A stretch of 64,000 bases of DNA. It comes from Schmidtea nova (Eukaryota). The notes beneath the pieces were generated by a model. The model did no database searches. It was not told where the DNA came from and saw only the letters and a program-made list of their open reading frames with translations. The DNA is taken from contig CM097882.1 of the NCBI GenBank assembly GCA_044892505.1, forward strand, positions 244,528,001 through 244,592,000, given 5' to 3'. The translations under genes and the position numbers were made by a program. This document shows positions 18,681 to 47,750 of the stretch, piece by piece (positions within the stretch are counted from its first letter, which is position 1; each line of letters starts with the position of its first letter).

Positions 18681-19392
18681 TCTTACATGTTAAGTCTTAT
18701 TTTTAGGATAGGTCTTATTATGTGGGAAATACGGTACTAGTTTAGTGTTTGTTATAAGGCTAATAATATTCACTGATTCTTTTGGTGGTGATACACCTGG
18801 TCTCAAGCAATAAACGTAACTATGATACAAGTATGTGTGCACACCTACTTGTTACTCATAGTTACTTTGTTGAAATTATTAATTTTTTCATTTAGCATTT
18901 TTTTTAAATGGCCATCAGGTAAGTTTTTATTAAGATATCTTTTAATGCTTCTATTTTGATATTACAATGATATAAGATCACTATAAAAGCTTTGAAAGTT
19001 TATCTATATGCTGGTGTGTTGGTTAGATTGACAACTGAGATCCTTATGATTTTATACGTTAGGGTGATCTCGCCAACATAAAAACATTCCCCCGCTGACA
19101 CCCATGATGTATCCCTAACTACTCATCATGTTGGTGCTGTGTCAACGTTGTGAAATGACAAGGCAGGTGAGCAACCTTGCGGCTACTATTCCCTTGTTTA
19201 TTCACGGGTCCACCACTACCGTTAGAAGGTGTCTGTGGCTTTCTTTCGGTCCCACTTATGCTCTTTTCTTTTGTCCTAGGGTAATTTACATTTTAGATAT
19301 CTGCAGCTTTAAATGAACCAGGTTTTCATTACCTTTAATTCTCATACATACTTCAACAAACAAGACAAATCAAATCATTCATTTATATACAT

Positions 19393-19940
19393 TTATTTGT
19401 AGTTCAACAATACAGAGGGTCGGATTACGTTTAGTAGCTCTTGCTCAGATAGGCCACTGAGCAAGTCTACTTCGATCCCAAGGCTATCTGCGTATGCTCG
19501 TCTTTCCCTACGCTTTTTCGCTCCCAAGCGATTCCGTCTCTTTGTTCGTTTCGAGCCCTCCAGAATTATTGGGGATGTTGTGGTAGTTGTGATTGGGATG
19601 GTTTCTATTTCCGTTTGGGTACTTGTTGTCGTAGATATTGTGTCTACCCACCGATTAATGGTGCTAGCCCGGATCACTGGGCGTAATTGCTCGGTGATGC
19701 CCTCAAGTAATTCGCCAGCTCCATCTTTAGGGCTGCAATCTCTCTGGCATGTTCCTCAGCTACTCGTTCTGCCCTGTATCTAGCCTGCAGGATGGACTTA
19801 ACCTGCTCTGGGTTAAACCATGTAGTCTTAATTCGCTGGTGCTCGTCGTTGAGCTGTCTCAAGCGGTTTTCTAGGACTCGCGATCGTGCTTTATGTTCTT
19901 TGGCCTCTTGTTTGTGGTTCTTAGTTGAATGTTCGCTCAT
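19393..19940 (-). pseudogene. 3' LTR copy of the 187-aa Arg-rich ORF, frameshifted by the 16-bp deletion
   Basis: Split into ORFs 19674-20021 and 19393-19677, versus a continuous ORF in the 5' LTR. Confidence 0.8.
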
Positions 19941-20129
19941 TTCTGAAAAATGTATCATTAATCGGGTTATGTATGGTTTGTCTGTTCTCTCAGTCACTTT
20001 ATTATTAAACAGGTGTTTCACTTTTAGACCACTTCATGCTCACAAAGTCATAACAAAACCCAAAAATTGAATACATTTATTTTTTAACACACATATCCTC
20101 GTTCTTCGAATGATCGACTTCCTTGCGAT

Positions 20130-20765
20130 TTAGAGGAAGGGTCTTAATTCCTGATCGCTGGTATTCTCGTCGCGACGGATTCCATTCTCCCAATACATTT
20201 CTGGGGCTGGGTTCCAACTCAGCTTGTCTTTGTAGATAAACACCTCCCAGAGGCGAAGCTCCTTGGGCTCGGGGTGTTGTTCCACGGAAACACTTCCTGG
20301 CGCATTGGAATAAGCGAAGACTTCCTCAGTGTAGCGACACCGAGGCCTGTCTAGCAGCGTGTATCCGAGTTTGTGTAGCTCTTTTCCGGTCATCGTTCCG
20401 GTACTTAGCAGCCAGCGGGGTTGCTGTAACTCATCGCAGAATTGATAGAACCATCGGGGGTTCTCCGGCTTACTATGATCCGAGGAGAGTACCCAATCAG
20501 TATCCCCTTCCCACCGCAGCTGTAGTCCAAACGCGCAAGCTGGGGTGTTAGCCGCTAAGCTCATATGGGCCCTCATCCACCGTCGTAGGTGGCGACGTGA
20601 TATTTCTGTCACCTTTCGAGGTGCTTCGTTTTCTCCTCTGACGTTTATGATCGTATTGTGTCGGATGACGGAGCGGGTGCGCCGTTTCTTACGAAGGATG
20701 GTTTCCTCTAGCTTTATCGGGTGCGCGATCATCGACTTCCTTTGGAGATTCTCTAGTTTCACCAT
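20130..20765 (-). CDS. LTR-encoded 211-aa protein (3' LTR copy)
   Basis: Identical translation to 46123-46758; basic RKKRR motif. Confidence 0.65.
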   Translation of the reverse strand: MVKLENLQRKSMIAHPIKLEETILRKKRRTRSVIRHNTIINVRGENEAPRKVTEISRRHLRRWMRAHMSLAANTPACAFGLQLRWEGDTDWVLSSDHSKPENPRWFYQFCDELQQPRWLLSTGTMTGKELHKLGYTLLDRPRCRYTEEVFAYSNAPGSVSVEQHPEPKELRLWEVFIYKDKLSWNPAPEMYWENGIRRDENTSDQELRPFL

Positions 20766-22124
20766 AGTATTTCTAAAGAAAATGGTTGTTTGTTAACTAT
20801 GGATTCTATGGTATAACGGGCCTATTTATATCAGTCAACCCACCCGTTATACTTAATTTTCAACACTCATGTTCAACCACTCAGCTTTAACAGTTTTTAT
20901 TGATCGATAATACTATTTAATCACATTCAATCTCATCAGTCGTTTTCGATTAGTTCCTCATTTAACTAGTAATGATCATGCCATGTCGGGTAATTCTCGT
21001 AAGTTCCTGTGGTCATTGTACACTGGGGTTCATCATTTTATCGGTCCTCAATGCCTGTAATTTGTTTATCATCTCTCCTGGCGACTAAACATAGCTGACA
21101 GAGGTTATCGATTATCCTTAACCATTGATACTAGGTTCACTATGCCCGAACTCGTACGCGCTAAGGTTGACATATACCTACCCTCGTCGTTACCTAATTC
21201 ATAGGCACTAATATTATTCACTACACGTATATCCCTCGTCTAGACCTCGCCACGATATATATCTTTCCCATACCACGGGTTTCTCGTTACGCTCGTTTAC
21301 GACTACTAGTTTATGCTCGATACCCTATCATCGTGATGTATATCGTTTATATTAGATCATCGCTACCTTGATTTCGTTCACAATCATTAGGTCTTACTCG
21401 ATACCCTATGTGCATCCCCTTTTTTCCCCCCACCAAGTATTTAATAAACTTATGGTCCCGCCGCATCAGCACCTCACAACCGAAAGATTGTGTTGCGCTG
21501 AGAGGCCCCAAGAATCCGTCAGGCTGTTAGGCCTCCGGAAAACCTTATTGATTTTAATATGGTTAACAATTATGAGGGTTTATATGAATGATACAAAACA
21601 TAACTCAACCATACCTTTTATTTCCAACTGGTTTCCAATACAAGGTTGTTACAAGTTATCAGTTACAACTTGCACTCGGTAAAAATGACATTACCAAATA
21701 CTGATTTGACTTCAGTATTTATACTCAACCGGTGTTGTTGGTTAGCCAATCAGCATCGAGTATGTGTGTATGTTTGATTCATTATTTTGTGTTGCCGGCT
21801 TTTTGGTGCCTAACTCAACTCAATGATTTATTTGGTTAATCATGCGGTAAGTTTTTCTTAGTCATCAATTTATTTTATTTTATTTTTGTTTTAGGTCTTT
21901 GGTGACATCCGCCCACGCGCTGTCATATTCCAATTTTATCTGCTTCGCATGAGTGAGTTTTGAAGATTTTTGTTGTTTTGATTAATATTTTATTTCTTTT
22001 AGATGTTGCCGCCTATTTTGTTACGCTTTGGTGTTGGTAATTTATTTTGTTGTTATTCTGTATTTAATTTATTTTATTGATTGTACATTATTTTCAGATG
22101 CTGCTCGATTTGGCTGGCCCAACA

Positions 22125-22143: not shown

Positions 22144-22327
22144 AATTGCGTCCCGCAATTACATGCATATACCTACATCAACATACATAAAAAGTTCGTG
22201 ACAGAACTTACATGCAAAACCACATAAGGTGGTAGCTTTTATACACATTTATACAAAGTCACACATTGTCATTGTCATGTTTATATTGTTACACAGTTCA
22301 ATGTTTCTGGCTCATAGGGGTTGATTT

Positions 22328-22843
22328 TCAGGTCCTTTCACTGGTTGACTGCATTTCGTATCGGGCTTGGATTTGTCGTAGATGACTTCTCATCCTTTGT
22401 TGGGTTTTTGCTTCACATCTACACATTATCGTTTGTTGTTGTTTGAGGCTTCTGATTCGATATAGGGTATTCGTAATCACGATGATCAGGATGATTGTCA
22501 GTATTGTCATTGTGACTATTCCCACGATGATCCATCTGTTTCGGATTTCGGATTCGATTTGGGTTTGACCTTTGATTGGCTTTAGGTGATCTTGAAATGT
22601 TCTATGGATTTCTCGGATCTTCTCGATTTGATTGAATAGGGTTTGTAAGGGTTTGCGATGATCATGACTGATTCGCATTTGTCGTATTAATTGTTTCAAG
22701 TCTTCTCTGACTTCATTTAGTTGTTTTTCGATCTCCTGGGATATTTCATTTGACAGGGTTCTTTGAATTTCGGTTGTCGAATAGTTCATGATGGTTACTG
22801 TTAACATAATCGTTAGGATGGGTAGGGTTTTGAGCCAGATCAT
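22328..22843 (-). CDS. 171-aa membrane protein: N-terminal hydrophobic segment, coiled coil, TM helix
   Basis: LPILTIMLTVTIM; heptad-rich middle; WIIVGIVTMTILTIILIIVI. Confidence 0.75.
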   Translation of the reverse strand: MIWLKTLPILTIMLTVTIMNYSTTEIQRTLSNEISQEIEKQLNEVREDLKQLIRQMRISHDHRKPLQTLFNQIEKIREIHRTFQDHLKPIKGQTQIESEIRNRWIIVGIVTMTILTIILIIVITNTLYRIRSLKQQQTIMCRCEAKTQQRMRSHLRQIQARYEMQSTSERT

Positions 22844-22916
22844 TTCTGTTTATTCTACTGATTAATACCTGTTACATCGATTTGTACATTTTTACACACG
22901 GATTTTTCGCCTCTTT

Positions 22917-24077
22917 TTACACATCCGTCTCTTCTGGTTCATGGAACCCTTCGTCTTGGAGCTCCATTGGTGGTGGTGGTATAAACGGTAACCACACCAC
23001 TCTACTTCTCCACATTGCGATTTCGTCTTGATACGTTCGGGAGATTTGTATCTCTTCATCTAACAGATACTCCATATAGTCTGATTGTTCGCTCAGAGTT
23101 TCGATTTGTCTTTCCATCTCTTCCACTTTTCTCTTCAGTGTTTCTACTTCTGTTGGTTCGGTTTCTATTTCTGGGGTTTCTTTCTCTGCTTTCAGGGTTA
23201 TTATTTGTTGTTTCAGCTCCTCGTTTTCTTTCGTCAAGTTCGTTATATTTTCCTCGTAAGCTCGGTTTGATTCCGCATGCCTTTCTTTCACTGCTTTCAA
23301 CTCCATTTTCTTTTGAGTCACTACTCCTTGGTAACCATTTACATCTCTTTCCAGACTTTCTTTTTCCCTGATCAACTTTTGTCTTTCCGCTTCCTCTTTT
23401 TGTCTAATGCCTCGCATTTCTCCATTTATCATCTGTATTTGCCATTGCGTTTTCTTTAGTTCCTTTGCCTGTTCTCGAATAAATCGCTGTCGTTTTCGAC
23501 TCCATTCTTTGTTTGCTTGTTCTTGTCGTTTTCTCTGTTCTAATTCCTCTTTTAATTCGTCTATCTCTTGATACAGTTTCCAATCTTCGCTGTATGCTGT
23601 CTTTCTGATTATCTCTTTGGCCTCTTTATACACTCGTTTCGACTCCATTTTCCAATGTCTCGCTTGAGCCTTGATTGCTAGTATTTTTTCCTCCATCTTT
23701 TCCTCTTGTTTCTCCCTCTCTTCTCTTCGCGTTTTCATCATATTTTTATAATGTTCTGCTTGTTTCCTCATCAACTGATAGGTTTCCTCTATCTTCTGCC
23801 GACTTCGTACATTCGTTCCTTTTAGCTTCTCTATTTGGGCTGTCAGTTGTACTATCTCTTTATTCACTTCCTCGAGTTCTAGTTGATATAACTCCATTCG
23901 TCGTTCGCATTCTAGTTTCTCGTAGAAATTGTTTGTCATCACTTCGTGTAATTCTCTGGTTCTTTGTTCCACTTCCATTTTACATCTCCTTTCGATTTCT
24001 CTTTCTATTGTTTCTTGTTCGTTCAACATCTCGCTTCTCGTTTCATCTTCGATTACATGTTCATTTGCGTTTTCCAT
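22917..24077 (-). CDS. 386-aa long coiled-coil protein
   Basis: E/K/R/Q-rich heptad pattern throughout; element-like codon usage; proline run near the C-terminus. Confidence 0.8.
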   Translation of the reverse strand: MENANEHVIEDETRSEMLNEQETIEREIERRCKMEVEQRTRELHEVMTNNFYEKLECERRMELYQLELEEVNKEIVQLTAQIEKLKGTNVRSRQKIEETYQLMRKQAEHYKNMMKTRREEREKQEEKMEEKILAIKAQARHWKMESKRVYKEAKEIIRKTAYSEDWKLYQEIDELKEELEQRKRQEQANKEWSRKRQRFIREQAKELKKTQWQIQMINGEMRGIRQKEEAERQKLIREKESLERDVNGYQGVVTQKKMELKAVKERHAESNRAYEENITNLTKENEELKQQIITLKAEKETPEIETEPTEVETLKRKVEEMERQIETLSEQSDYMEYLLDEEIQISRTYQDEIAMWRSRVVWLPFIPPPPMELQDEGFHEPEETDV

Positions 24078-24166
24078 TCTGTAATTTACAAATTTACACT
24101 TGTTATACTACACGTTTATTGTTGTTGTCGATTTTTACACTTTATTTACAGGGTCGTTCATTCTGA

Positions 24167-25579
24167 CTACTCTAACCATCCTTTCGTTGACTTCGTGTTC
24201 ATCACTGTTGTACTTGCTTTCCTTTCGATCTCCAACTCTACATATAAGTTGTCATCGTACAACATTTCCCACATTGTTTGGTGTGGTATGAATTTTGGTT
24301 CTCCAGTCGCTAATGAACATTCTGTGGTTGGTCTTTTGTAAGCTTCGTGCTTACTATCAATTTTGAATACTCTCGCTATTGTTTCTTTCGAGTTTCTCAC
24401 TCTCATTATAGCCTTTGTTTCTAGTGGCCATTCTAATATGTCGTCGTAACCACCTTTACACAACGCAAAGAATAATGACACATGCGTTTCCTTTCCTGAT
24501 CCATCTCCATTTGGATAAATTCTCATCCGGACTTTGTATCCATTTTTCCACAGATAGAATGGTGGACTTGTTACCGACACTTGACTTCCTGCTTTTGCTG
24601 CTGCGAACTTTTCGTTGAACTTCTTGATTTTCCATACATATGGTGCGACCGGTAAACTCTCGATATCCTCTGCATCTCGCACCCACATTTGGTGTCGTAC
24701 ATTTACTTCCTTTACTAGCGTCTCTATGACTTTGATTTTCTCCATCATTTTCTCTCTGGTGAGCTCGAATTGTTCTCTTGTTTCCAGTAATAACTCCGTC
24801 ATTATCCTCTGAGATTCGATTTCTTTTTCCAGCTTCTGTATGGTTTGTTCCATTCCGTTTAAATTTTCTGTTAGCATCTCTGCGTGTTGTACCGTCTCTG
24901 TTTCTAAATGCTCTTTCATTTCTTTGCTCGTTTTCTTTACTAGACATCCTTGTTTACTCCATACGCACTTCCTTGGTCTTGATTCGCACCGTTCCCAATG
25001 TTCTCTCACCATCACTTCTTCTCCGGTTCCGCAATTACTTGGACAAATTCCTCGGAATTTTCCGCACACTTTCTCTTCTGCTACGTTGAGATGTTCTGTT
25101 TCGATTACTTCTCTCGTCTCTCTTTGTTTGCAGTATTGACACTCTACTATCTCTGCTTTGCACTCATCCTTGTGCTTTTTTGACTGCTTGATGGTTATCG
25201 TCTGTTGACACTTTTCACATATCGCTTTCTTGTTTTCACATTTCCCCAGATGCTGTCTTAGCTCGATTATTTGTCCTTTCCATTCACAGGGTTGGTTTAT
25301 ACATTCTGTTTTTATTTTCCAGATCTCCTTTTGTATTGCTTTGTCTGGTTTCGTCTCGTTGATTAGTAGTTTATCGACACACTCTGGACACTTTCTTGTC
25401 TCACTTTCACTGATTATTTGCAATATACACTTGGTGCACATCCTGCATCCACATTCGGTTTGTCTCGGTTTCAACAGTAAATTTCTACACTTTACACACG
25501 TCACATTTACTCCCCATTGTCGATTTTCTCCTCTCAGAATTTCGATTGTTTGGTAATCTGCTTCACTTTCTGCTCTCAT
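24167..25579 (-). CDS. TRAF-family protein: RING, TRAF zinc fingers, coiled coil, MATH domain
   Basis: CVKC..KPRQTECGCRMCTKC..CPEC; PDKAIQKEI..C..CEWKG; YVWKIKKF; SPPFY..GYKVRMRIYPNGDGSGKETHVSLFF..KGGYDDILEWP. Confidence 0.95.
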   Translation of the reverse strand: MRAESEADYQTIEILRGENRQWGVNVTCVKCRNLLLKPRQTECGCRMCTKCILQIISESETRKCPECVDKLLINETKPDKAIQKEIWKIKTECINQPCEWKGQIIELRQHLGKCENKKAICEKCQQTITIKQSKKHKDECKAEIVECQYCKQRETREVIETEHLNVAEEKVCGKFRGICPSNCGTGEEVMVREHWERCESRPRKCVWSKQGCLVKKTSKEMKEHLETETVQHAEMLTENLNGMEQTIQKLEKEIESQRIMTELLLETREQFELTREKMMEKIKVIETLVKEVNVRHQMWVRDAEDIESLPVAPYVWKIKKFNEKFAAAKAGSQVSVTSPPFYLWKNGYKVRMRIYPNGDGSGKETHVSLFFALCKGGYDDILEWPLETKAIMRVRNSKETIARVFKIDSKHEAYKRPTTECSLATGEPKFIPHQTMWEMLYDDNLYVELEIERKASTTVMNTKSTKGWLE

Positions 25580-25668
25580 TCTACAACGATATTTACATCA
25601 ATTTCCCCATATTTTTGATTTTTCTGGTTCTTTATTTACACGTATTTACACAATTTTCCGCTTATTCA

Positions 25669-26019
25669 CTATACATCCTCAGTTGAATCTGGCTCTGGAT
25701 ACACGTCTATCTCATTTACAATCCAGCTCGTCCAACTATCTGGTATCTCTTCCTCTTCATGTCTCGTTAATCGGTCAATTTCCTCTGCTTGCCAGTTGTT
25801 CACTTCATTCAATGTTCGGTTCTCGTTCTGTAATTCGTTTATCTGTAGTTGTTGAATCTCGATTTTGTTCATTGCTTCGAAATTACAGTTGTAACTCTCG
25901 GTTAATAATTGCGTTTTGGCCGTCAACTGGCTCTGTAATTCGTTTATTGTTCTGGCTAGCAGGTCACATTGCACTTTCCATCTTGTCATCGTTGACATCT
26001 CGATATTTTCTTGGTTCAT
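25669..26019 (-). CDS. 116-aa coiled-coil protein
   Basis: Heptad pattern with acidic tail; sits in the tightly packed 3' cassette. Confidence 0.65.
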   Translation of the reverse strand: MNQENIEMSTMTRWKVQCDLLARTINELQSQLTAKTQLLTESYNCNFEAMNKIEIQQLQINELQNENRTLNEVNNWQAEEIDRLTRHEEEEIPDSWTSWIVNEIDVYPEPDSTEDV

Positions 26020-26142
26020 TGTTTTTCTAGATTATATACATCATTCTCTTTTTTCTGTTTTTATGTTTTATAATATTTATACCCATACGTATACGGTTAT
26101 GCATTGGTTTTTACACTATTATTTACACTCATATTCCACCCT

Positions 26143-29100
26143 CTATACAATCACCACTGGTTTTCCTTCGTACAGTTCTTCGTCCTCGATCTGTACCCAC
26201 ATCTCTTCGTGTTTTGATCGTCTTTTCAGTTCCTCTCGTACTTCTTTTGATAGTTTTATGTTGTAGTTCGTGACCTTTACGTCTGGCCATTTTACTGCTA
26301 TGGTCTTATTTCTCATGCCATATCTCCAACATACTATCATGATCGTTATCAGTGGTATACACGCTATGAATACTCCCATGCTGATTAATCCCATTACTGT
26401 TTTTCCAATGCTCATTCTTGGAGTCTCACTTTGGTTTATCATCACGCCATATTGACCTTTCCATTCTGCTTCCCATTGTTCATATTGTTGTTGTCTCCGT
26501 CTGACTTCTTCGATCACTTTCTCTGGTTCCCATTTTTCTTGTCGATTTGGTATTGTTTCTTCCTTCTCGTTTTGTTCTCTCTTCTGACTCAATTCTCGGA
26601 ATTCTAACTTGCGGGTTCCCCCTTTTATCGTTATGTTCCTTGGCGTGTAATAGGTTTCGCACCTTTCTTGTTGATTTCCTTGTGCGTCTACTTCTTCGAT
26701 TGCACACACTTCGTATTCTGCGTTTGTTTTCAACCTCCTCATTTCTACCTCGATTGTTTCCCTTTTGTCATTTGATGTCTTTTGACAGTTTCGTGGAGAC
26801 TCTCTCATACTGTTTGGCATTAATGTCCAACAGATTTCTAGGACCTTTTTATGGATCTTCCATATTATCAGGGTTGTTGACTCTGGTTCGTTTTCTATTG
26901 TCGTCCTTTCCGTTGTTGCCTGTTGAGTTCTCTGACTGTTGGTTGTCGTGGTCCTTCTTGACTTTCTTTTCCTCTGTCGACTTCTTCCCATTTCAATCGT
27001 TCTCGTTCCGTTAATTTGCTCTGGCGTCTGGTACAGTTTGCACTCCAGGCTTCTTTGTATTATTTCTCTTATTCTTCGGATTACGCAAATTTCGTAGGCT
27101 TGTCCGACTTCGAATCCATTTAGTTGAAACGGGATTCCTCGTTCTCTCGTTCTGCATTGCGGTATTATGTTGTTGGTCGGTATTCCGATGTATTTTCTCC
27201 AACACATCCCAATTGTTCTCCGACCAATGTTTTTTATCTCCACGGTTACTACTTCATTCGCAATCGTTTCTTGATCTTGTTTCTTTCTTTTTGGGAACTC
27301 AATTATCTCCTTTGCTTGGAACACTTTACACTCGCTTGTTCCTGGTCTGTTTCCGTTTGCTGCTTTTTCCATGAGGCATAGTTCACATGTTTTCTCTGTT
27401 TCCATTTCAGTTATCTCGATTTCCTCATTTGTCTCTGCCTCTCGACTTTCTCTTGTTTCGCTGATTCCAATTACTTCATTGTTTCGTCCCCAACATCTTC
27501 CATTCGTTGTTCGTTGATCTTGGATGTTTACTAACGTCATCACGCTGATATCTATGTCCTCCATGATTCTCTTAATGAGGATTAATATTAATGCTACACA
27601 TATCAATTCTGGTTGGAATGTTAATTTGCCCGCTGGATTTTTGGTTATTCTTTCTTTCTCTGTTCGGTTTCTGATTCCCTCTTCTGCTTCGGTTTGATTC
27701 TTCCCTTTCTCTGATTCCACTTCTGTTCTTCTCGTCGTCTCTTTGCTTCTTTTCTCAATCCATTTCTGTATTTTCAGCGCTTCTGTTGCTTTGTATAATT
27801 GACATGCAGTTACTTGAGGTGCTTTTGGTTCTCCTCTCTGCTTTATTGCGCATATTATGTATGACTTTTCCTTCTCCAATCCTTTGATTTGGATGACGTC
27901 TCGCTTCAGATCTGACAATATACACTTCAGCGTATCGTTTTTCTTCAGGTTTTCTTTCCAGCATATTCTTTCATATACTTCATTTCCTCTGATTATTTCC
28001 AGCGTGACGTATTGTTTCTTGGCTTCTCCTTGCCCGATGATTGTTATCAATATCGCAATACACAACATTTCTGGTCTCAAAAGTAGACTTCCTGTTCGTT
28101 TTCCATAGTTCGCATGTTCGTCTTCTGTTCCACTGTTTTCTCGTTCTTCGGCTTCCCCTTTCTTGTCGTTTCTCGTTGGCTTCGGTTCTTCTTGTCTTTC
28201 TTTTTCATTGTCTTCGTTGTTATCTTTGTTGTCTTCTTTCTTGCTGTCACTTTTGTCGTCGAAATCTCTGTAACCACCCCCTGGTCCTTTTGAAATGTCG
28301 TCCTCGACATTAATTTCTTCAATCAATCTTTCATACGCTTGAACCGCGAGTGTGCTAGACTCGAATTCCCGTATTTCCATATCCTTGGATGGTTCTATGT
28401 CTTTTAGTCTACTTTGCTTGATTGTTTCTTTGGCATTTGCCCACTCCTTCACATACTTTCTGAACAAGTCTTTCCATCTTCCTATTCGTTCCTGTTCCTT
28501 TGAGTTGTTCGTAAATTTCAAATCTCTTCTCTTCAAGAATTCTTCTACTATCTCTGGCTTTTTGTGTCTCAATAACGCGCTTCTGATACACCAATTCTGA
28601 TTTTGTTCCATATGGTCATTGATCTTGAACGCTGGTTCCTTGGTGACTGGATTCACCCATGTTAGTAATGCTCTTGTTTTCTCTATGTCGTGTATCATTA
28701 CTGTTAGACTGAAGTTCTTTACGTTATTCGCCAGGTATTCGATATCGTCTTGCTTCTTGATGGACTTTATGAACTTGATCATCTCGAAGTTGTTCCACTG
28801 TATTGCGATGTCTATGATGGAATTATTCTTTCCATTTTTCCCTTCGATTTTTGCTCCTGCTTCGTATAACTCGTTTAGCACTTTGCAGTTCGTCTTCTTC
28901 CTCGCTGCGATTATCATGATTGTGTCTCCGTTATCATCAGCCGTGTTCATGTCTGCTTCGCATTTGACCATCGCTTTCGTTATTTCCAGCACTTCGTTTT
29001 CTTTCTTTCGACGTAATGCCCAGTGTATCGGTAGTCTTCCATCCTTTGATAAAAGGAATGCTACTGGCATTTGGTTCTTGATCGTTTCTATGTCACTCTC

Positions 29101-32100
29101 GTTATAATCCCCTTCTGCATATCTGTGCACTTTCTCTGTAATTGTTCCTAGTATTTCCAACGAATTTTTATTCTCCTTGAATTCCGATAATTTCTCCTGT
29201 GCTTTTGCCACGATTGCGTTTAATCTCTCTTGATAATCGGCTTTTGCATTGAACAACACTGCTTTGCTTCTTATTCGCGTTTGCATCTGTTTCATTCGTT
29301 GGTCTTGATACACTGCTTGTCTGAAGAATTGTCCATACTTCAATGCTTCCACCAGCTCTTTATATCGCTTGCTTATTTCTTTGTGCTGCTTTTGGATGTC
29401 ATAGAAATGTTCGAAGCTCATATCCGGATTCCATTGCTTATCACACCATTTCTTGATTAATCCGAATAGTTCTTTCTTCCTGTCTTCTAACTTGTATTCT
29501 CTTGGGTTTTCACTAACCCGTAGCGTATCTCTCGCTACTAACACTGCAAGGGTTTTTGGATCGTATGTTACTTCTAATAGATGTTTCAGTAACGCATTTT
29601 CTCCCCTTGTGAACACTTCATTACAATCTATGACCCACGAATCTCCTTCTGGTCTTTTCCACTTTAGCAATATTCTCCAGGTTTTACTGTTCTTTACCCC
29701 GATTGCTTGTTTCATGATCGATCCTCTAGTTAGTTCATTGATTTCCCACGTGGCATTTTCCGTAATATACTTTAGTATTCGGTGATTCGCTCTATCAATT
29801 GCATGATTCAAGAACGTTCGTCCTTCTTTATCTTTTGTCAACCAATTCGATCTGGTGTTTCCGAATAGCTTGATTATCTCATCGTTTCTTCCATGAATCG
29901 TCATCATCATAAGTGGAGTAATTCCTTCCCAATTCACTTTGTCAATTTCTCCTCCACCTTCGAGTATCATCTCCACGATCTCTTTCACTTTCTCGTTTCC
30001 GCTGTGCTTGATTGCATTATGTAACGCGGTATTACCGTCTTTGTCTTGTAAATTCAACGTCTGAGGGATCTCCTCTAGCAGCGTCCTTGTTATTGGATGT
30101 GCTGTTCTATCCTTCGCATAGTCCATTACATTCTTTCGAACTTCTGACAGTATATTGAAATCGTGCCACCATTTCCACTCTGGTATAATTTCTCTGGTTT
30201 TCTTTGCCAGTTCTTTGATGTCTATTATCTCCCTTCGGTTGTCTTCTAGACTTGTTTGCGGTTTTTGTTGTACTCGCAACATACTGATTCTCGCCGTCTG
30301 TGATCTTGTCATTACCCGTTTCTCTGGTAATAGAGTTACTGTCTTTGGTATTTTCCTGCATCGACATGCGTTCACGTATATTGGTCTTACCAATGGATTG
30401 TTCACCAATCGTACTCGCACGTTATTTTCATTTACTGTTGTTATTTCATATGGCCCTTTGCCTGGTCGTTGGAGTTTCTTGACCGTACCGGGTATTATCT
30501 CTGGTGTTTCGATTATCACCCAATCTCCAACTTTTAAATCATGTGCTTTCACATTCTTTTTCTGATCATGCAGATCCTTGTAACTCTCTTGATAGAACTT
30601 GATGTTTAGTTCCGCCGTTTTCCAGATTTCTTGCATTCTTTCTTTGAACTTTGTAACGTAATCGTCAACCTCCATGTACTGTGATAATGGTGGTTGGTAT
30701 TCTAAATCGATCGGTAAGTTGCAATCTCTTCCGTACATCAGTTGGAATGGACTTAGCTTTGTTGCCGCATGTATTGACATTCTGTATGCCATTAAACACA
30801 AGTTAATATACTCGTCCCAGTCAGTCTGATGTTTACTGACGTAATTCGACAGCATGCGTATCAATGTCCCATTGAATCTTTCTGTTTGACCGTTCGTTTG
30901 TGGATGGTATGGGGATGTTCGTAATTTCGCAATTCGGAAGTAATTCGTAACTTCGTCTAATATTTCACTCATGAAATTTGTTCCTTGATCCGTTAGGATT
31001 TTCTTTGGTGTTCCGTATCTGCAGCATATCTCTTCCACCAATATTCTCGCGACTGTTTTCGCTTTTTGATCCGGTATTGCGAACGCTTCTGGGAACTTTG
31101 TTAGATAGTCCGTGACTACTAATATGTATTGATTTCCCTTCAAACTTTCCGGCAATGGTCCAACTACATCCATTGCTATCGTTGCCATCGGTTCTGCAGG
31201 TATTGGCATTGGTTTTAGTGGTGTTTTCCACTTCGTTCCGACGTTCTTTCTTGTCGCACAGGTTAAGCAGTTCTTTATCCATTCCTTCACATCATCTTCC
31301 ATGGTTGGCCAAAAATACTTTTGTCTCAATCTCCCGATTGTCTTTTTCACTGACATATGTCCGCCTAATTTTCCGTCATGATATTGAGTCATGATTTCTT
31401 TTCGCCTATTCGCAGGTAAGCACATCAATCTCCGTTCTCCATCCTGTATCAATAACCATCCTTTTTCCATCACGTATCGGTGCTGATATTTCTGCATATG
31501 TTCGCGCAATACTTGGTTCTTGCCGAATATTTCTATTTCCTTTTCTTTCAAATACTGGCTGATCAGTCCCAACTCCTCATCTCCGAGTTGATCTTTCCTT
31601 AATTCGCTGAAATCCAAATCTTCCGCTATTAATGCACATATTTTTAGAGCGTTCAGGTTCACCAATTCTGGAAATATAAACCTCGACATGCAATCCGCAT
31701 TTGCATTTGCTTTTCCTGCTTTAAACTTTATGAACGGCGAGTATTCCTGTAACTGCATCGCCCAACGCATCAATCTACTTGATGATTCTTTATGTTGGCC
31801 TAACCATACCAATGGTTGATGATCCGTCGTGATATATATTTCATGACCCCACAGTAGGTACTTGAAATGCTTGATTGCCAATATTATCGCATAGGCTTCT
31901 CTTTCCGTGACTGAGTAATTCCTTTCATGTTTCCTGAAGGTTCGACTGTAATATCCGATTACTCTCTCTTTGCCTTCTTCATCAAATTGGCCTAGTACTG
32001 CTCCTGCTGCGTATCCACTTGCATCTGTTGCCAACAAAAATGGCTTCTTAAAATCTGGATGGACTAATATTGGCGCTGTAATCAGCTTGTCTCGTAATGT

Positions 32101-35100
32101 CTCAAATGCTGCTTGCTGTTCTGTTCCCCACACAAACGACACGTCTTGTCTTACTAATTCTTGCATTGGCTTTGATATTCCTGCATAGTCCTTGATGAAT
32201 TTTCGATAATATCCACACAATCCCAAAAATTCTTGTATTTGAGTCACTGTCTTTGGTGGTGGACATTCTTTGACTTTTTCGATATTCCTTGGATCTGGTT
32301 CTTTTCCTTTTGCTGATACAATGTGACCTAAAAATGTCACTTTCTCTTTTGCCCAATCGCACTTTGACGGCTTCAATTTCAGTTTCCACTGTCTTAATTT
32401 CACGAACACATTTCTGATGTCTTGTAAGTGATCTTCAAATGTTGCGGAGTAGATCAATAGATCGTCGATATACACCATGCATTGTTTTATGCCATGTGTT
32501 ACGAAATTCATGCATCTCTGGAATGATGCTGGCGCGTTTGTTAACCCAAACGGCATTTTCTTGAATTGGTACAGATCTCGTCCGATTGTAAATGCTGTCT
32601 TTTCTTTATCCTCGTCTTTCATTTTGATCTGCCAATATCCGCTTTTTAAATCTAGTGACGTGAAATAAGCTGCTCCTTGTAACGTCAATAACATTTCGTT
32701 TATATCTGGCAATGGGTACGTATCTCTTTTCGTAACTGCATTCAACCGTCTGTAATCGATACAGAATCTCTGAGTTCCATCCTTCTTTTTTACCATCACC
32801 ACTGGGAATTGCCAGGGTGAGCAACTAGGTTCGATGACCTCTGCATCTAACATTTTTTGTACTTCTTCTTCTGCTACTGCTTTTTGGGCTTCTGCCAATT
32901 TGTATGGTCGTAATGCTATTGGCGTTTCGTCCGTCAACGGTATCGTGTGTAATGTTACATCACATGTTCCCAAATCTAAATCTGATGCTGCAAATATATC
33001 TTTATATTCCATCAACAGTTTCTGTAACTGTTCTTTTTGTCGTTCGTCTAACAACACACTGTCGATTTTCCATGGTAATTCGCCTTTGCCTTTCTCATTC
33101 TTGTCTGGTATTTCGATTTCGGACATTGGTGTCAATTTACCCAATCTCTCATTCTCGTATATTATCTTGTCCTCTTCGTCGAAATTTACCAGATTGATCG
33201 GTATTTCTCCTTCCTGGTTTATCGTAACCAATTCTCTTGCCATTGGTAATTCTTTCTTTGCTTCGAACTTCTTACTTGGTTCGAATATCATATCTCCTTT
33301 TATTGTCGAATCGATCTTGACATAGCACATCATTTCGTGCCTCGCTGGCACTACTATTTGTTCCGCACTTGCCACTTTAACTTTCATTCTGCAGATTTTT
33401 CCTGTCCTATCTTTTAGTTTCATTGCTCCTAGATCAATTACGATTTCCTTGAACAGGTCTGGCATCAGGTCAGTTCCAATAATACATGGTACACTCAGCG
33501 ATGGTATTACAGCGATGTACGTGTTGATCTCTGCACCTCGATGCTTAATTTTTACAAACCATCTTCCGGCTACTTCTACTGTCTCTTGACTGCACGCGAT
33601 TACATGTACATTCGTCTTCTCGATTTCTCCTTGATTTTTCTCTGGTATATAATTAATGTCGATCGCCGAAATATTCGCGCCTGTATCGATCATAGCTTCG
33701 ATTTCTCTTCCATTTATTTCTACGGTTGTTGTTAAAATCGGTCCCATATTTGTGGACATAACCGCTATCGTATGCGTGTCTTTTAACGAGTTTACACTTC
33801 CACCTCGTTTTACTTTGCATCCTTCTGGAATTATCGGGTATATACTTGTCATCGGCATCATCTGCATCATATTCGGCTTCGCTTTGTATATCGGTTCGTT
33901 ATACATTGACTGAGGTGGAGCGCTGTATCTCCAATTCTCAACTGCACTCTTTTCGTTATACTGTGGAATCTGGTTTATATTCGCTTGTCCTCCTCGATCG
34001 TCATCGTCATCATCATCATTGCTTGAGTCATCTTGCGTTCGATATCCTCTCACTCTTTCCCATAATCCTTTCCTTTCTTTCTTTAGTTGTCGCCTTGCTT
34101 GTTCATCTTGCATTATCTTTTTGAATTTCCTTCCGACATCTTCATTTGTTCCTCTCATTTTTGCAAGTATCTTCAACAACCTCTTTATTCGATGTATGTC
34201 TTTTGAGTGTCCGTGTAACACCATCGTTTTCGCAAGGAATGGTAAAAACCCTACTACCATTTTCCAATTCACTTTCTTTTCTCTCTTGTAGATGTCGAAA
34301 CACGCTAACATTTGCGTTATTATCACTCTGACGATTTGTATAATCAATATAACACCCAGTATTCCAGCCATCATTTGTCCAAAGATCAGGAATCTTCCCC
34401 ACATTGCCTTCATCATATTTTCCGTAGCTTTTTTGAAATGTGCCGGTGACAACAGCAGTTCGTAATTCGGTCCTTCTCGATAATCCGTTCCTCCCGTTAT
34501 CGTTACGATATTTGACAGTAATGCTTCTCTTCTTGCCGGGAATAATATATTCTGCCTTGCTGCTTCTAAATCCTTTGGACTATAGATTCCGTTGTTTGAG
34601 ACATCTACGTCACTGAACTGTCTATCCTTTGACAACTGCATTAGCTCAAATTCTCTTGGTGCTAATACTTCAGTTCTTCCTGGGAACATAACCCATTTGC
34701 CATCTGGCTTCTGATAAAGCGGTCCGTACGCGTTACTACAGTTGAATGGATTTGGTTCAAACCCTGGTGGATTGATGATTCTCGTCACCGGTTGAACGTA
34801 TCGTACTTTTCCTTTATAATCGATTTCTAGTTCGTTTGTACATTGTCCAGGTTTCAACTGCGTTGTTGCTGCTAGCGATGCGTGTGTCTTTTCGCAAATG
34901 TATACGTACATTGCTTCTCCGACCACTCTTCCGAAATGTCCTTCTCTCAGTGGTAATAATGGCATCGCGCTATCTGGATTCGTAATCGCTACGGCCAACT
35001 TTGTCTTTAATATTTCCCGATTCAGTATGCAATCGTTATTTATCAGATCATAGTACACTTTTTGCAATGAGGCTTGTCCTCTATGGAATAAGAAATCCAT

Positions 35101-38100
35101 TTTATTATTCACATACAAGTGTAGCTTGATATCCATTGTGTCGATCTTGGGTTTCGCATTCGGCACTTCTTGTTTTGACACGTATATTCCTGGATAGTTT
35201 GTTTCGTATACTGTGGTACTGCACTTAAGGGTTGCTTTCCCTTTTATGAATCTCATGCCCACATCCTGATTTGTGGTTATCAACACTGTAGGTGTGGTTC
35301 TCATCTCTATCCGTTTTTCTCTATGATCTGGCTTCAATTGTCTTTTATTCTCTAACGCTTCTTTGAGATGTTTTGCTCTAGCTTTGTCATCATCGTCTTC
35401 TTCTTGGAATGTTTTCCCTTGAATTTCGTCGAACTTTGCTCCTTGTAGCAGTTGTAATTGACATTCGTTCACTTTTGGTTTATACACCAATGTTGACATT
35501 CCCGTTTGACACATGCTTCTGTCAATTTTACACATGGATAACGTTTTCATTTCTCCTGTTGTTGGTTCGAAGAATGCTTCGTAGCTTTTCAGTTCGACTA
35601 TATACGTATCCATTACCACTAGGTTGGTTGCAGGTACTCCAAATATCGGATAGGTTTCTCCTTGACAATACCCTTCTCCTCCCGTAATTCGTCCTGCTAC
35701 ATAATACGTCTGCTGCAACATCATTCCTGGCTTTCCTTTTATCTTGATTTTATCTCTCGTTGTCACTTCTCCATGCTTGAATAATGCTTCACAGTCTTCT
35801 CCTTGTAACACGATTGGTTCTCTTTCGGTTCCTGGCATGACAATTGCTGAATAATGTCCTCTCCCACAATAGAATGCGAATCTCGTCTTCTGTACCTTGC
35901 ATTCATTCACCATTGTCTTTATTAGTTCTGCCTCTTGATACACGTGATACCATTGTTCCTTTTTGATCTCTTTCAATTCTACTGGAGTTGCATCTTTGCA
36001 CTGCTCCGTACCTCTCAATGAGTACTTTTCTCCCAATTTCATTTGATCACAATCAAATACCTCGAACGTTGTTACACCTTCTGTGCTTAACAACCATACT
36101 AACATCATCATGATTATCGAGTTTAAATTCAACGTCGATCTCCCGTTTCCTTGCATCGTTTGTCTATTCTCCATTTCTCTCAATACTCCTTCGAGTTTCT
36201 TTCTCATAACGTTAGACCCTTCTTTTGTCTGGTTCTCTTTTATGAACTTTTCCCATCCTCCTTTTCTGAGGATATATGGTTCAATTTCCTTCTCGATAAT
36301 CATCGCCGTACTCTTGATATGTCTTCCCATCGGACTTGACTTCGGACTTCCTCGGCTTAGCGTTAGCAAATTGTATATCGTATACGAGATTGCTACTAGA
36401 TATTTGCTATCCGTCTCTGCTCCGTTAAGTAGCCTTTTTACCAACATCGTGGTTCCTTGCCAATCTAGATGATTCGATTTTGTTTTCGCCTTAATCAATT
36501 CTGGCATAATCGGTGCTATTGCATTGTGTAGCATCCTTGCCTTTGTACTAGGTTCGTTTATCCGCCACAAATTCTTTAATTCCGGGTCGATTATCGCTAA
36601 CACATCCATTATCGTTTTGGTGAGCCATTCCTCTCCTTGGCAGACTTGATTCTCCTCCTTGCCTCTGATTTCTGCGATTTTATCTAATTTCTTCAAGCAA
36701 ATCTCCCATTGCTCTTGTCTCCTTTCTTCCCTTGATTTTAGGATTGTTGTTGCTGGATCTGTCTTTGGTCTTCCTCTTGGTCGTTTTTCCATTCCGGTTC
36801 CCGTTTCTACAAATCTCACTGCTCTTCCCGTTTCTTCTGTAACATCTCTTCCTTCGTTCGCTCGCTGTTCTAACCATCTTTCCATTTCTTGAGTAAACTG
36901 GGGTTGTTCTTGCTCGTCTTCCGATTCGTTTACCATTTCTATGACTACCTCCTGTTCCACTCCTTGATCGTCGATTTCTGCTGGTGACGTTATTGGCATC
37001 TCTATTATTCTGTCAAAGATGTTCGCTGTTGGTTTTTGAGTCAACTTCGTTAATTCCTCTATCGCTTCATCACTGTCTGTTAGTATCTCATCTACGTCAT
37101 ACGCTTCTGGCGGTGTTCCCTCTCTGATTTTTACTGGCATTGTCCTTGTTTGTCCCGAACTTGTTCCTGGGGTCATTGTTGACTTCATCGGACTTGGTGT
37201 ACTCATGCTTCCCTTCGCTTTCTTTTCCTCTTTAAACTTCAGTGGTTGACCCACTATCTGTGCCACTGTTAGCGTATTCATTAGATCCAATTGCACTGGT
37301 GTCAGCCAGATTTCCAAACTATTATCCAACGATCGTCCTTGATGTTGCAGGTGGAATGGTAGTTCGTACATCAGTTTCTCTTTAACACTCTTCACTTTTT
37401 CTGTTAGCATCACCCAAAACTCTTCTTTTCTTTGATTCGGATACATTATCCTCAAATGTATTTTCTGTGGCGTTTCCTCCGCAAACTCTTTGTTTCTCCA
37501 CTTTTTTATTACGTCGTCTAGTTGCTCTGGACACCACTCGTTAACTCTCTTGTATTCTGCTATCGCCTTAGCTACTTTTCTCAAGTTCGTTATGTCTTCT
37601 CCATTTGAGATTATGAAACCTGCTAAGCCTTTTATTGTTTGTCTTTTTCCCCGAGTATTTCCTCTCAACCGCTCGATCAATTCACTCGTTTTCTGTTTCT
37701 CCAATTCTGCCCATATTACTGCAGTTTCTGGTCCGTCTAAGTCCGTTGGTAGTAACCTCCTTGTTACCATACATATTCGTTTCGTATTCCGTTCATATCT
37801 GTCTTCTCCTTCCGGATCTTCTTCATACACGCCTCTTTTCACTTTCCAACATTTCTCTTTGTTATCCCATTGTTTCTCTACTGGCGTCAATCGTCGTCTG
37901 TTGAGATCCAATTCTCCCAATATTGTCTCCCATTCTGGCTTCATCTGCCAGTTCCGATAGATTTCTACTATCTGTCTCAGCTTGCGCATAACGTCCTCTT
38001 GTCGTTTCTTTTTCCTTTCCTCATCTCTTGGTGTTGCTCTTGGCACATCATCCATTCTGATGACGTGTATTGTCTGATAATTATCCCATATGCCGATTTT

Positions 38101-41043: not shown

Positions 41044-41917
41044 CCCGATTCCACTATCTTGGAATGCTGTACTAGTTTTCTTTACTTCTAGTTCACCACT
41101 TGTTTCTGAATTCGACTCTTCTTCTTCGCTACTCTCTGTTTCGTTATCTCTTGATTCGCTTCTTGTTCTGTTTTCCCTGACTAGTTCACTGTCTATCGTC
41201 TCTACTTCGTTTTGTACTTCTAGATCTTCTGGGGTTTCTTCTTGATTCTCTTTATTACTCGAATTATCGCTGATCTCTACTTGTTTGTTCTTTTGTTGCT
41301 TAGGCTTGTTACCTGTTCTTGTCCTTTTCGCTGCTTTTCTTTCTGCTTCCGTTAAGATTGGTATTATACCTGATCTTGTTTCTCGTCCCTCAATTTTGTC
41401 TATTCCTCAACTGCTTATATTCTCAACTGCTTTTCTACTCCGCTTTTGCTTTGCTTCTTCTTTGATTTGTTTCTTTTGATTGCTCTGACTGCTAGATTGC
41501 TTTGAATTGCTTGATTGATTTGTTTCCTTAAAACAAATAATCACTTACACGATACGTCCCCGTTATCGTGTTTCTCGTCCCTCTCACGGGTGTAGTCATA
41601 ATTCATGAAGATCCCCATTTTTCAAATTTCCCTTGATTTTAAGTCTATTTAAATTATCTATGCAGTCGCATCAATTATCTATTCTTTATCAAATACACCA
41701 ATTACTTTTCCCCAGTTCCCCAATTACTTTGTCGCTCAGCGCTCTTATTATCCCCTTTACTTTTCTCAGGCTTCTCTGGCTCTGAGTTCAAATTTCCCCT
41801 TATCTGTCGACTACTCTGTTTCTCGACTATTCGCTTTATCTCCTATTCACACTACGTTTACTACTTCATTTCAATTCTCATCTCTACTCACCTTTAATTC
41901 GACTGACATCTCTCGTT

Positions 41918-43967: not shown

Positions 43968-44426
43968 TTACAAGTACACTGTTATTCTTTCGGATACGGT
44001 AAGGTTGCACATAGGACATCGTTCATTTATTTTACAGTCATTACAGAATCGAAAATGCCCACATGGCAACAACATTATCTGTATTTTGTTCATTTCACAG
44101 ATATAACACGTCAGATATTGTCTCGTATGTTCTGTTGTTATTCTTATCCATTCATCGTGTTTTGTTGTTAACTGTTGTTCTAGCCTGTGGCACTCGATAT
44201 TCATCTCAGGGTTGCTTAATCTTTCTCTATACCATTGATATCGTGTTGTTGTATCCACTGTTATCTTATTCTCGCTTATGCTCATCATCATGTCGGCTCT
44301 TTCTGTGTTGTTTGTCGGTTCGTGATATTCTCCTACCTCGAGTCGTCTTAACTTCCTCATTATTGTCTCCACTGTTTCGTTGTTTGTTTCGAAAAACGTT
44401 TGCATTTCTTTTATTTTGTTCTCCAT
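43968..44426 (-). CDS. 152-aa protein with C-terminal IAP-type C3HC4 RING (putative E3 ligase)
   Basis: CYICEMNKIQIMLLPCGHFRFCNDC..CPMCNLTVSERITVYL at the extreme C-terminus; no BIR domain. Confidence 0.9.
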   Translation of the reverse strand: MENKIKEMQTFFETNNETVETIMRKLRRLEVGEYHEPTNNTERADMMMSISENKITVDTTTRYQWYRERLSNPEMNIECHRLEQQLTTKHDEWIRITTEHTRQYLTCYICEMNKIQIMLLPCGHFRFCNDCKINERCPMCNLTVSERITVYL

Positions 44427-44960
44427 CCCCTGAATGAATTATCATTAATTTCTGTCGATTTTTATTTATTATTTATCATTCTTATTCTATGGTAGCCCTA
44501 CTGTTCGCTTTCTGTTGTTCTGTTTTGCGTCACTGCGTGTATATCCCCCCGTGTTCTTGAATGTCGCCCCGACATGATCATTGTTAGTTGCTCACACTCA
44601 TACCATTTTCATACACGCTTTTCAGCATACTTTTACCTTACGTCATGCATACTTTTCATCACTTTTCATACTGTTATTCCACATACTATTCATCATACTT
44701 CATTCGTCCTCATACTTCCATTCCATTATCATTCATACTTTCATTCTCATGCATACTTTCATCACGTTCATCAATCTCATTATTTTACACTCATACTTTT
44801 ATTTATTATTTTTCAACCCGATTTATTCTTGCTTCAGGACCCTCAAACCCTCTGTTATTCTTTACTTTACTTTTCCTCGCTAAATTCACTTTCATCCCGG
44901 TTCATGCGCTCTAAACTGTCCGCAGCTATCGCATTCACTTTTTCACACAAAGATCGATTT

Positions 44961-44979
44961 AATCCCGGCTGAGCCCCCA
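44961..44979 (-). promoter_or_regulatory. Primer-binding site, tRNA-Pro type
   Basis: TGGGGGCTCAGCCGGGATT, 6 nt after the 5' LTR; two mismatches to the MLV Pro PBS TGGGGGCTCGTCCGGGAT. Confidence 0.85.
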
Positions 44980-45369
44980 AATTTATGCTGGTGTGTTGGT
45001 TAGATTGACAACTGAGATCCTTATGATTTTATACGTTAGGGTGATCTCGCCAACATAAAAACATTCCCCCGCTGACACCCATGATGTATCCCTAACTACT
45101 CATCATGTTGGTGCTGTGTCAACGTTGTGAAATGACAAGGCAGGTGAGCAACCTTTCGGCTACTATTCCCTTGTTTATTCACGGGTCCACCACTACCGTT
45201 AGAAGGTGTCTGTGGCTTTCTTTCGGTCCCACTTATGCTCTTTTCTTTTGTCCTAGGGTAATTTACATTTTAGATATCTGCAGCTTTAAATGAACCAGGT
45301 TTTCATTACCTTTAATTCTCATACATACTTCAACAAACAAGACAAATCAAATCATTCATTTATATACAT

Positions 45370-45933: not shown

Positions 45934-46122
45934 TTCTGAAAAATGTATCATTAATCGGGTTATGTATGGTTTGTCTGTTCTCTCAGTCACTTTATTATTA
46001 AACAGGTGTTTCACTTTTAGACCACTTCATGCTCACAAAGTCATAACAAAACCCAAAAATTGAATACATTTATTTTTTAACACACATATCCTCGTTCTTC
46101 GAATGATCGACTTCCTTGCGAT

Positions 46123-47674: not shown

Positions 47675-47750
47675 AAAATGACATTACCAAATACTGATTT
47701 GACTTCAGTATTTATACTCAACCGGTGTTGTTGGTTAGCCAATCAGCATC
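47675..47750 (-). promoter_or_regulatory. Candidate LTR core promoter
   Basis: TATAAATA on minus (47709-47716), CCAAT box AGCCAATCAG (47737-47746), Inr-like TCAGT/TCATT downstream. Confidence 0.45.

Follow-up and report, generated by a model that had tools for sequence, protein, structure and literature searches.

How are the accessory genes of a very large retrotransposon expressed when they stand on one strand with a single giant polyprotein gene? The question is raised by positions 22328..26142 of a 64,000-nt stretch of Schmidtea nova DNA (GenBank assembly GCA_044892505.1, contig CM097882.1, positions 244,528,001 to 244,592,000; hereafter the window, to whose first letter all coordinates refer). 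By its sequence, this part of the window is the 3' cassette of an intact Burro-type Ty3/gypsy element. We consider, with a probability of roughly 0.63, that alternative cis-splicing joins one leader in the long terminal repeat (LTR) of the element to eight acceptors and so gives each open reading frame (ORF) a separate message.

The element runs on the minus strand from 48117 to 19009 (29.1 kb) and is intact, with LTRs of 3.1 kb and a 4-bp target duplication (TATA); its 5' and 3' LTRs differ by 3 substitutions and 16 gap columns. Cassette copies at 94-100% identity occur at least 37 times in the genome, and the exact start of the TRAF gene at least 55 times. Next to the family of the window copy (family A) stands a second one, family B (29.6-30.0 kb), with the eight ORFs in the same order, polyproteins 64% identical and accessory proteins 31-55% identical to those of family A. 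The initial annotation had placed four ORFs (here 116, 470, 386 and 171 aa) behind the polyprotein, with spacers of 123, 89, 89 and 73 nt, and these minus-strand coordinates are right. In the order of transcription the ORFs are:

46123..46758, minus strand: LTR ORF1, 211 aa; dN/dS 0.20; followed by AATAAA at 46074 and a U-rich element
45370..45933, minus strand: LTR ORF2, 187 aa, with a coiled coil and a conserved Arg-rich helix; dN/dS 0.09; AATAAA at 45374 and a U-rich element
43968..44426, minus strand: RING-finger ORF, 152 aa (PF13920, E 7e-9); dN/dS 0.22; AATAAA at 43963
26143..41043, minus strand: polyprotein, 4,966 aa, in the order Gag zinc knuckle, Env-like fusion domain, protease (PR), reverse transcriptase (RT), RNase H (RH), integrase (IN), ankyrin repeats
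25669..26019, minus strand: ORF116, 116 aa; dN/dS 0.05; 49-50% identity to its family-B homologue
24167..25579, minus strand: TRAF-like ORF, 470 aa, with RING, TRAF zinc finger and MATH (E 8e-27); dN/dS 0.10
22917..24077, minus strand: ORF386, 386 aa, coiled-coil-like; dN/dS 0.12
22328..22843, minus strand: ORF171, 171 aa, with a hydrophobic N-terminus and, by eye, one likely membrane span; dN/dS 0.13

Purifying selection acts on each of the seven accessory ORFs: pairwise dN/dS between natural copies is 0.05-0.25 in families A and B, and all four cassette ORFs are intact in 22 of 30 family-A cassettes. They are therefore translated and need a route to the ribosome.

Such a route is suggested by a YAG trinucleotide just ahead of each accessory start codon. 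The initial annotation had listed seven of these, and its seven contexts are all correct, the exons beginning at 46765, 45935, 44429, 26026, 25580, 24078 and 22845. An eighth acceptor, absent from that list, precedes the polyprotein ATG:

46766..46768, minus strand: acceptor 1 (TAG), 7 nt before LTR ORF1; in 41/43 copies; top 0.1% of 2,511 AGs
45936..45938, minus strand: acceptor 2 (CAG), 2 nt before LTR ORF2; in 43/43 copies; best-scoring AG of the element
44430..44432, minus strand: acceptor 3 (CAG), 3 nt before the RING ORF; in 26/26 copies; top 0.4%
41527..41529, minus strand: acceptor 4 (AAG; TAG in family B), upstream of the polyprotein; AG in 26/26 copies with the anchor motif; top 0.2%
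26029-26027, minus strand: acceptor 5 (TAG), in spacer 1, before ORF116
25583-25581, minus strand: acceptor 6 (TAG), in spacer 2, before the TRAF ORF
24081-24079, minus strand: acceptor 7 (CAG), in spacer 3, before ORF386
22848-22846, minus strand: acceptor 8 (CAG), in spacer 4, before ORF171; CAG in 30/30 family-A copies; the weakest acceptor

A YAG ending 1-7 nt ahead of an ATG is no rarity in this element: it accompanies 146 of 698 sense ATGs (0.21), with 28/151 non-ORF ATGs and 36/169 internal methionines of the polyprotein giving a range of 0.19-0.21. Seven such sites would nevertheless have a joint chance of about 2e-5 (0.21^7; the 1-7 nt window was chosen post hoc), and when the four spacers are shuffled by dinucleotides, the four cassette YAGs have a joint probability of 3e-4. 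Across families A and B, a YAG stands 0-7 nt ahead of the homologous ATG at 279 of 290 starts, a count over copies that are not independent, that includes both LTRs of an element and from which one ORF386 copy without an ATG was dropped. By ORF, the figures are 41/43 for LTR ORF1, 43/43 for LTR ORF2, 26/26 for RING, 44/45 for ORF116, 45/45 for TRAF, 44/44 for ORF386 and 36/44 for ORF171. The YAG is retained in nearly every type of LTR ORF whose upstream sequence is unalignable, and position -3 interchanges between C and T (38 CAG and 28 TAG among 66 distinct contexts); among ORF386 and RING starts genome-wide, all three copies without C at -3 (2 and 1, respectively) carry TAG. A role of the YAG as the stop codon of an upstream ORF was rejected, CAG being commoner than TAG.

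The acceptors also resemble those of the host. A splice matrix was built from 50 GT-AG introns inferred from host myosin genes (57 in a first pass, of which those with GT-AG and a margin of at least 10 were kept), and under it seven of the eight acceptors in each family fall within the best 3.3% of AGs (2,511 AGs for family A, 2,360 for family B). That some acceptors lack a pyrimidine tract, as the initial annotation had remarked, is correct; it is no objection to splicing, because host acceptors are A/T-mixed too, and 9 of the 57 first-pass host introns end in AAG. Acceptor 4 (41527/41526) is followed by 483 ATG-free nucleotides in family A and 652 in family B, while equal lengths upstream hold 11 and 9 ATGs. 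The acceptors before the ORFs are under selection and are not a product of chance.

A candidate donor to match them is found in the 5' LTR:

44986..48117, minus strand: 5' LTR (TG...CA), 3.13 kb, containing promoter, leader, donor and two ORFs
47709..47743, minus strand: CCAAT box (as ATTGG) and TATA box of the predicted LTR promoter; 45/53 columns invariant in 30 family-A copies
47608..47695, minus strand: predicted common leader exon, with a putative start; 8/76 columns invariant, 64% mean identity
47602..47610, minus strand: 5' splice donor AAG/GTATGG; AAG/GTAATT in 27/30 copies

The donor named by the initial annotation (47608/47607) is borne out: its GT at 47607 is present in 30/30 family-A LTRs, and the surrounding 12 nt are 97% conserved within a hypervariable, 64%-identical leader region. 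Its host-trained score is 6.5 (7.9 for the common form), against a host median of 5.8. A CCAAT box and TATAAATAC lie about 380-400 nt into the LTR in all family A and B LTRs examined (5' regions without a matching 5' LTR, 5/20 in family A and 2/10 in family B, were left out), and the donor-like GT follows about 110 nt past the LTR TATA box. Family-B LTRs barely align to those of family A, yet carry GTAAWT or GTAATG 131-163 nt past the TATA box at a sharp rise in T content. Altogether, 53 of 55 distinct promoter stretches have a GTA-type donor 99-163 nt past the TATA box at a step up in T content, the two exceptions being an incomplete LTR fragment and an LTR of another type. Family-B leaders are free of ATG before the donor (16/16), and in family A an ATG at the predicted leader start is absent or stops within the leader in 26/30. 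One LTR with a 1.2-kb deletion retains the donor, so that it is not a splice product.

Several further observations concern this region. The leader exon and the start of the intron (47608-47699) are hypervariable mosaics of 64-68% identity, compared with 93% in U3 and 95% in the internal cassette; that this variability reflects escape from piRNAs is a guess. An AATAAA just ahead of the donor (47610-47615), followed by U-rich sequence, is found in 30/30 family-A LTRs (as AATACA, a listed planarian variant, in one) and is lacking in family B. In foamy viruses the LTR poly(A) site is held down by U1, and the AATAAA beside the donor could, by analogy, be such a site. Within the LTR intron, positions 47447-47527 appear conserved among family-A copies and form, by eye, a UUCG-capped hairpin with no Rfam match, and a different conserved block is common to family-B LTRs near the equivalent place. 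A third LTR type has a CCAAT-TATA start as in families A and B and a donor-like GAG/GTATAC 99 nt further on.

Under the proposed leader splicing, transcription would start in the 5' LTR, and one short leader exon would be joined to a chosen acceptor, the ORF behind it then being the first to be read. The three 5' ORFs (LTR ORF1, LTR ORF2 and RING) would end at poly(A) sites of their own, whereas the cassette would give four nested mRNAs with a common end after ORF171 or in the 3' LTR and introns of 21.6-24.8 kb. The polyprotein mRNA would likewise be spliced, which would remove the three upstream ORFs. The genome RNA would stay unspliced and need an export factor, for which LTR ORF2 is a candidate; its conserved Arg-rich helix is the one feature that points to an RNA-export or transactivator protein. 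The sequences that bear on 3' ends are located in the spacers and behind the cassette:

26020..26142, minus strand: spacer 1, 123 nt; TGTAWATA at 26127 and 26040; no AATAAA; CCAAT and TATA pair (family A only); acceptor 5
25580..25668, minus strand: spacer 2, 89 nt; octamers at 25650, 25640 and 25597; AATAAA at 25636; acceptor 6
24078..24166, minus strand: spacer 3, 89 nt; octamer at 24150; AATAAA at 24146 and 24120; acceptor 7
22844..22916, minus strand: spacer 4, 73 nt; acceptor 8
22200..22290, minus strand: predicted common poly(A) site of the cassette; AATATA/TATAAA and a U/GU-rich element, a layout matched in family B

The initial annotation had reported AATAAA in three of the spacers. 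This holds for the window copy, but the hexamer of spacer 4 overlaps the acceptor and is present in only 1 of 30 copies. In both families spacers 2 and 3 carry AATAAA and spacer 1 does not; family B has it in spacer 4 too. U-rich elements (T 0.37-0.69) stand behind the poly(A) hexamers after LTR ORF1, LTR ORF2, RING and the last ORF, and are missing at 10 of 11 spacer AATAAAs (T 0.14-0.29). An operon accounts for this pattern less well than do three 5' mRNAs with ends of their own and a nested set on the 3' side.

The spacers are also rich in TGTAWATA octamers: six to seven occur in the four spacers, compared with 0.3-0.4 in shuffles (at most 2 in 300), and they are never found in the polyproteins and, in family A, on the sense strand only. 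The first TGTAAAWA lies 15-21 nt past every stop, and an octamer also lies 17-21 nt before the ATG, where no donor role is possible. The motif matches the Pumilio element, and a PUF-type protein probably binds the octamers. A CFIm function for TGTA was rejected, because both CFIm and the UGUA motif are reported to be lacking in planarians (PMC5068929).

A number of points weigh against leader splicing. The model requires the leader donor to pass over as many as seven acceptors, with read-through at three poly(A) sites, and four family-A leaders hold an ATG frame that is open to the donor. Acceptor 8 is weak (top 22% of AGs in the window copy under the host matrix), the YAG is missing before ORF171 in 8 of 14 family-B copies (the AAG alternative in one of them, B4, scores poorly), and two LTR ORF1 starts have no YAG. 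The T/GTAAAT sites behind the stops score like host donors (4.3-7.8, median of the host 5.8) and give intron candidates of 50-118 nt, near the host class of 43-62 nt, so that local introns could explain the four cassette acceptors. A conserved donor is also compatible with the addition of a spliced leader (SL): flatworm acceptors are often common to cis- and trans-splicing (PMC12582326), and the C. elegans element Cer1 uses both reactions (PMC3315495). The leader model is built on sequence and conservation. Searches for spliced retrocopies in the genome returned none for the TRAF start (no changed junction, 55 intact) or for the ORF386 and RING starts (just 2 and 1 TAG point variants), and leader ends without the following G numbered zero for both leader variants, with 29 intact ends for the first and no such control for the second. 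Four sequencing runs of unrecorded kind, covering 18950-27000, had loose ends at the LTR end with genomic flank and are uninformative on splicing; none of the 15 joints listed, out of 21, falls at a predicted splice site, which is no evidence either way.

How else might the cassette be read? In a hybrid arrangement, the proximal ORFs would be cis-spliced to the leader, and the four cassette cistrons would be freed as the spacers are cleaved to give 3' ends and an SL is added in trans at the YAG. We regard this as unlikely, even though SL trans-splicing is reported for Schmidtea (PMC12582326; PMC10899757), the one-strand cistrons with spacers of 73-123 nt lie within the 300-nt limit that the former source sets for operons, the acceptors lie very near the ATG, and Cer1 yields an SL1-trans-spliced subgenomic RNA (PMC3315495). 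The AATAAAs of spacers 2 and 3, and of spacer 4 in family B, would suit such cleavage, but spacer 1 has none and the spacer hexamers are without U-rich downstream elements, so a poly(A) site in each spacer is not what is observed. Flatworm SLs end in AUG (PMC12582326), yet 189 of 280 starts are out of frame with it; the remainder (85 in frame and 6 in frame with a stop, together 91/280 multiples of three) is what chance predicts. Six RING copies carry that in-frame stop directly after the AG, the A-run between AG and ATG varies freely in length across copies, and a strong, competing cis donor is present upstream. The initial annotation had left the choice between cis-splicing and an operon with SL addition; its cis branch is supported, down to the very donor it had picked, while the operon branch is not favoured, because the poly(A) signals are patchy and without downstream elements, a cis donor lies upstream and no frame bias towards the SL AUG exists.

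The spacers might instead be small introns, from T/GTAAAT 15-21 nt past the stop to the YAG, which would leave stop and start about 20 nt apart on a polycistronic RNA translated by reinitiation. Donor-like sites do align between the two families in spacers 1-3 and stand at +15 to +21 in all four spacers, with host-like scores, intron sizes of 50-118 nt and, at -1, T as the commonest host donor base (24/57). The same octamer, however, recurs before the ATG, as described above, the four 5' acceptors and the LTR donor are left unexplained, no spacer-less copy exists among 30 family-A and 15 family-B cassettes, and none of the special signals that reinitiation after long ORFs requires was found; we judge this quite improbable. 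Internal promoters, with the YAGs serving short local leaders, would make the cassette resemble smaller relatives of the element, in that families C and D use an internal CCAAT and TATA module and family-A spacer 1 has such a pair (26081). This seems very improbable to us, since the pair was not found in three family-B copies (B1, B4, B5), no pair is common to the other cassette ORFs, and no donor lies between the spacer-1 TATA box and acceptor 5. Finally, the YAGs could be passengers in generally conserved spacers, with ribosomes reaching the ORFs on unspliced RNA through internal entry or leaky scanning. Whole spacers diverge by only 1.0-3.8% within family A, where dS is 0.17-0.19, and YAG invariance inside that family alone therefore proves little. 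Spacers 3 and 4 are, by contrast, merely 50% identical between families A and B, and the YAG persists there as it does in the unalignable LTR types and ranks at the top under the host matrix, which makes a passenger role extremely improbable. Leader splicing remains the reading we prefer, and its main complication lies in the octamers behind the stops: these could double as donors and turn the spacers into small introns. The outcome may be extra splicing within the nested mRNAs, or a cassette to which the leader model does not apply.

The proposed plan has parallels in viruses. Complex retroviruses such as HIV and foamy viruses have one major 5' donor and many alternative acceptors, accessory genes after pol/env and regulated export. 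The element shares the donor and acceptor plan, the position of accessory genes and the predicted need for regulated export: a major donor, as judged by conservation and host score, lies near the RNA 5' end, and acceptors precede the accessory ORFs. It differs in its Ty3/gypsy RT, in non-overlapping ORFs with acceptors 0-7 nt from the ATG, in ORFs within the LTR upstream of the primer-binding site, and in a polyprotein with an acceptor of its own. The adenovirus major late unit has a common leader, acceptors beside start codons, several poly(A) sites and nested 3'-coterminal families over about 25 kb. All these traits recur in the arrangement proposed here; adenovirus is a DNA virus, whereas here one unit must also give a full-length RNA genome.

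Among retroelements, the closest parallels are the Burro elements, of about 30 kb, with a polyprotein of about 5,000 aa in which Env lies in frame between Gag and Pol, ankyrin repeats, MATH/TRAF, accessory ORFs and tandem repeats (PMC6431247). The window element agrees in being an LTR element of about 30 kb with a single ORF of about 5,000 aa, Env in frame, ankyrin and MATH/TRAF domains, accessory ORFs and tandem repeats. Its TRAF is a stand-alone gene downstream of pol, unlike that of Burro1 of S. mediterranea, which is inside the polyprotein, and that of D. tigrina, which is upstream (PMC6431247), and it has a four-gene 3' cassette and two ORFs within each LTR. Cer1 (PMC3315495; PMC10309623) is a gypsy element whose host carries out SL splicing; an acceptor precedes its initiator ATG, it makes a spliced subgenomic RNA, and its unspliced genome RNA needs the element-encoded export factor CERV, a need that we liken to the one proposed here. 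Cer1 has one spliced product, which shares Gag exons and occurs with and without SL1, whereas here eight ORFs have an acceptor each. Flatworm SL operons (PMC12582326) have genes on one strand less than 300 nt apart and an acceptor before the downstream gene; the present element differs in its upstream cis donor, the lack of consistent spacer poly(A) sites and the lack of SL-AUG frame bias.

Burro elements themselves are already known, are among the largest LTR retrotransposons and reach thousands of copies in planarians; PIWI knockdown is reported to raise Burro RNA (PMC8532177). We found no published account of Burro splicing, accessory-gene expression or this cassette in a search that did not extend to the original Burro genome paper, and the section on Burro in PMC6431247 gives none of accessory-ORF expression; within these bounds, the proposed plan of one leader and many acceptors would be new for Burro. 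If true, a non-retroviral gypsy lineage would have reached complex-virus gene expression independently, and stand-alone TRAF and RING mRNAs would originate from Burro copies. Two earlier reports may be touched by this: the expansion of TRAF/MATH in planarians (PMC6109357), and the degradation of traf, ankyrin and E3-ligase mRNAs through SMEDWI-3 piRNAs (PMC6824462). A fuller picture, in which a Ty3/gypsy element combines adenovirus-like splicing of eight genes with a distal four-gene cassette handed to the host SL machinery, a Rev-like export protein from the LTR and Pumilio-type sites that grade the nested mRNAs, appears doubtful.

Relatives of 15-17 kb (C1, C2), with 37% polyprotein identity, are abundant and have a gag-env-pol ORF of about 3,360 aa and one downstream ORF. 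In favour of leader splicing, they repeat the proposed unit on a local scale: in 5/5 copies they have a CCAAT-TATA pair, a short leader, a G/GTAATT donor and an intron of 116-121 nt, with TTTTAG 3-6 nt before the ATG of the sole accessory ORF (5/5). This ORF is ISG20/DEDDh-exonuclease-like (PDB 7yw5, E 6e-7) and has its own promoter and 5'-UTR intron.

Within the window element, the start of LTR ORF2 is the second ATG of a 193-aa frame, a choice backed by the homologous start in 43/43 LTR copies. LTR ORF2 had no family match and no Atlas match (best 0.77), and LTR ORF1 neither a family nor a fold match, with a model that was too poor (pLDDT 45.5). No database match at E<=1e-40 was returned for the TRAF ORF, and an Rfam scan of the element gave no matches. 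Pfam places zf-CCHC at 275 of the polyprotein, a mononegavirus-type fusion domain (Monjiviricetes) at 1912-2253 (E 1e-67), PR at 2439, RT at 2751, RH at 2997, IN at 3210 and ankyrin repeats (Ank_2, E 6e-18). BIR, BCL2-like, ubiquitin-like and dUTPase-like domains were not detected by Pfam in the whole polyprotein or seven segments of it; the published extra annotation relied on HHpred. By eye, the polyprotein end (26143-27700) runs from a hydrophobic segment through repeated beta-type domains to a membrane span with a short tail, and resembles a receptor-like module immediately upstream of the TRAF gene; this C-terminus has no match in Pfam or among PDB sequences. Ahead of the polyprotein ATG, 121 codons without ATG are open (41406-41044; 197 in family B, 34 in families C and D), which may indicate a non-AUG start. 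A 19-nt tandem array and 84-91-nt repeats occupy 41904-43138, between the RING ORF and the polyprotein acceptor. The remaining features of the element are:

44962..44979, minus strand: primer-binding site, presumably tRNA-Pro-like, situated downstream of the donor
19009..22124, minus strand: 3' LTR, with its ORF2 copy frameshifted by a 16-nt deletion (94 aa)

The flanks of the element are AT-rich, and host introns are short and AT-rich, consistent with a dugesiid planarian host. Animal matches to a host myosin exon reached only 58-69%, and the host group is suggested chiefly by the architecture of the element. Polinton-like insertions, recognised by eye, break or substitute the 5' ends of several Burro copies. 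Elsewhere in the window, positions 1-9045 (plus strand) hold a degraded piece of a family-B Burro element, opposite in strand and with 85-87% identity to an intact family-B copy, and 12876-16454 an intact hAT transposase ORF of 849 aa (13175-15724, minus strand) with 14-nt tandem arrays on its flanks. A very AT-rich, satellite-like array with units of about 200-240 nt extends over 54200-58900.

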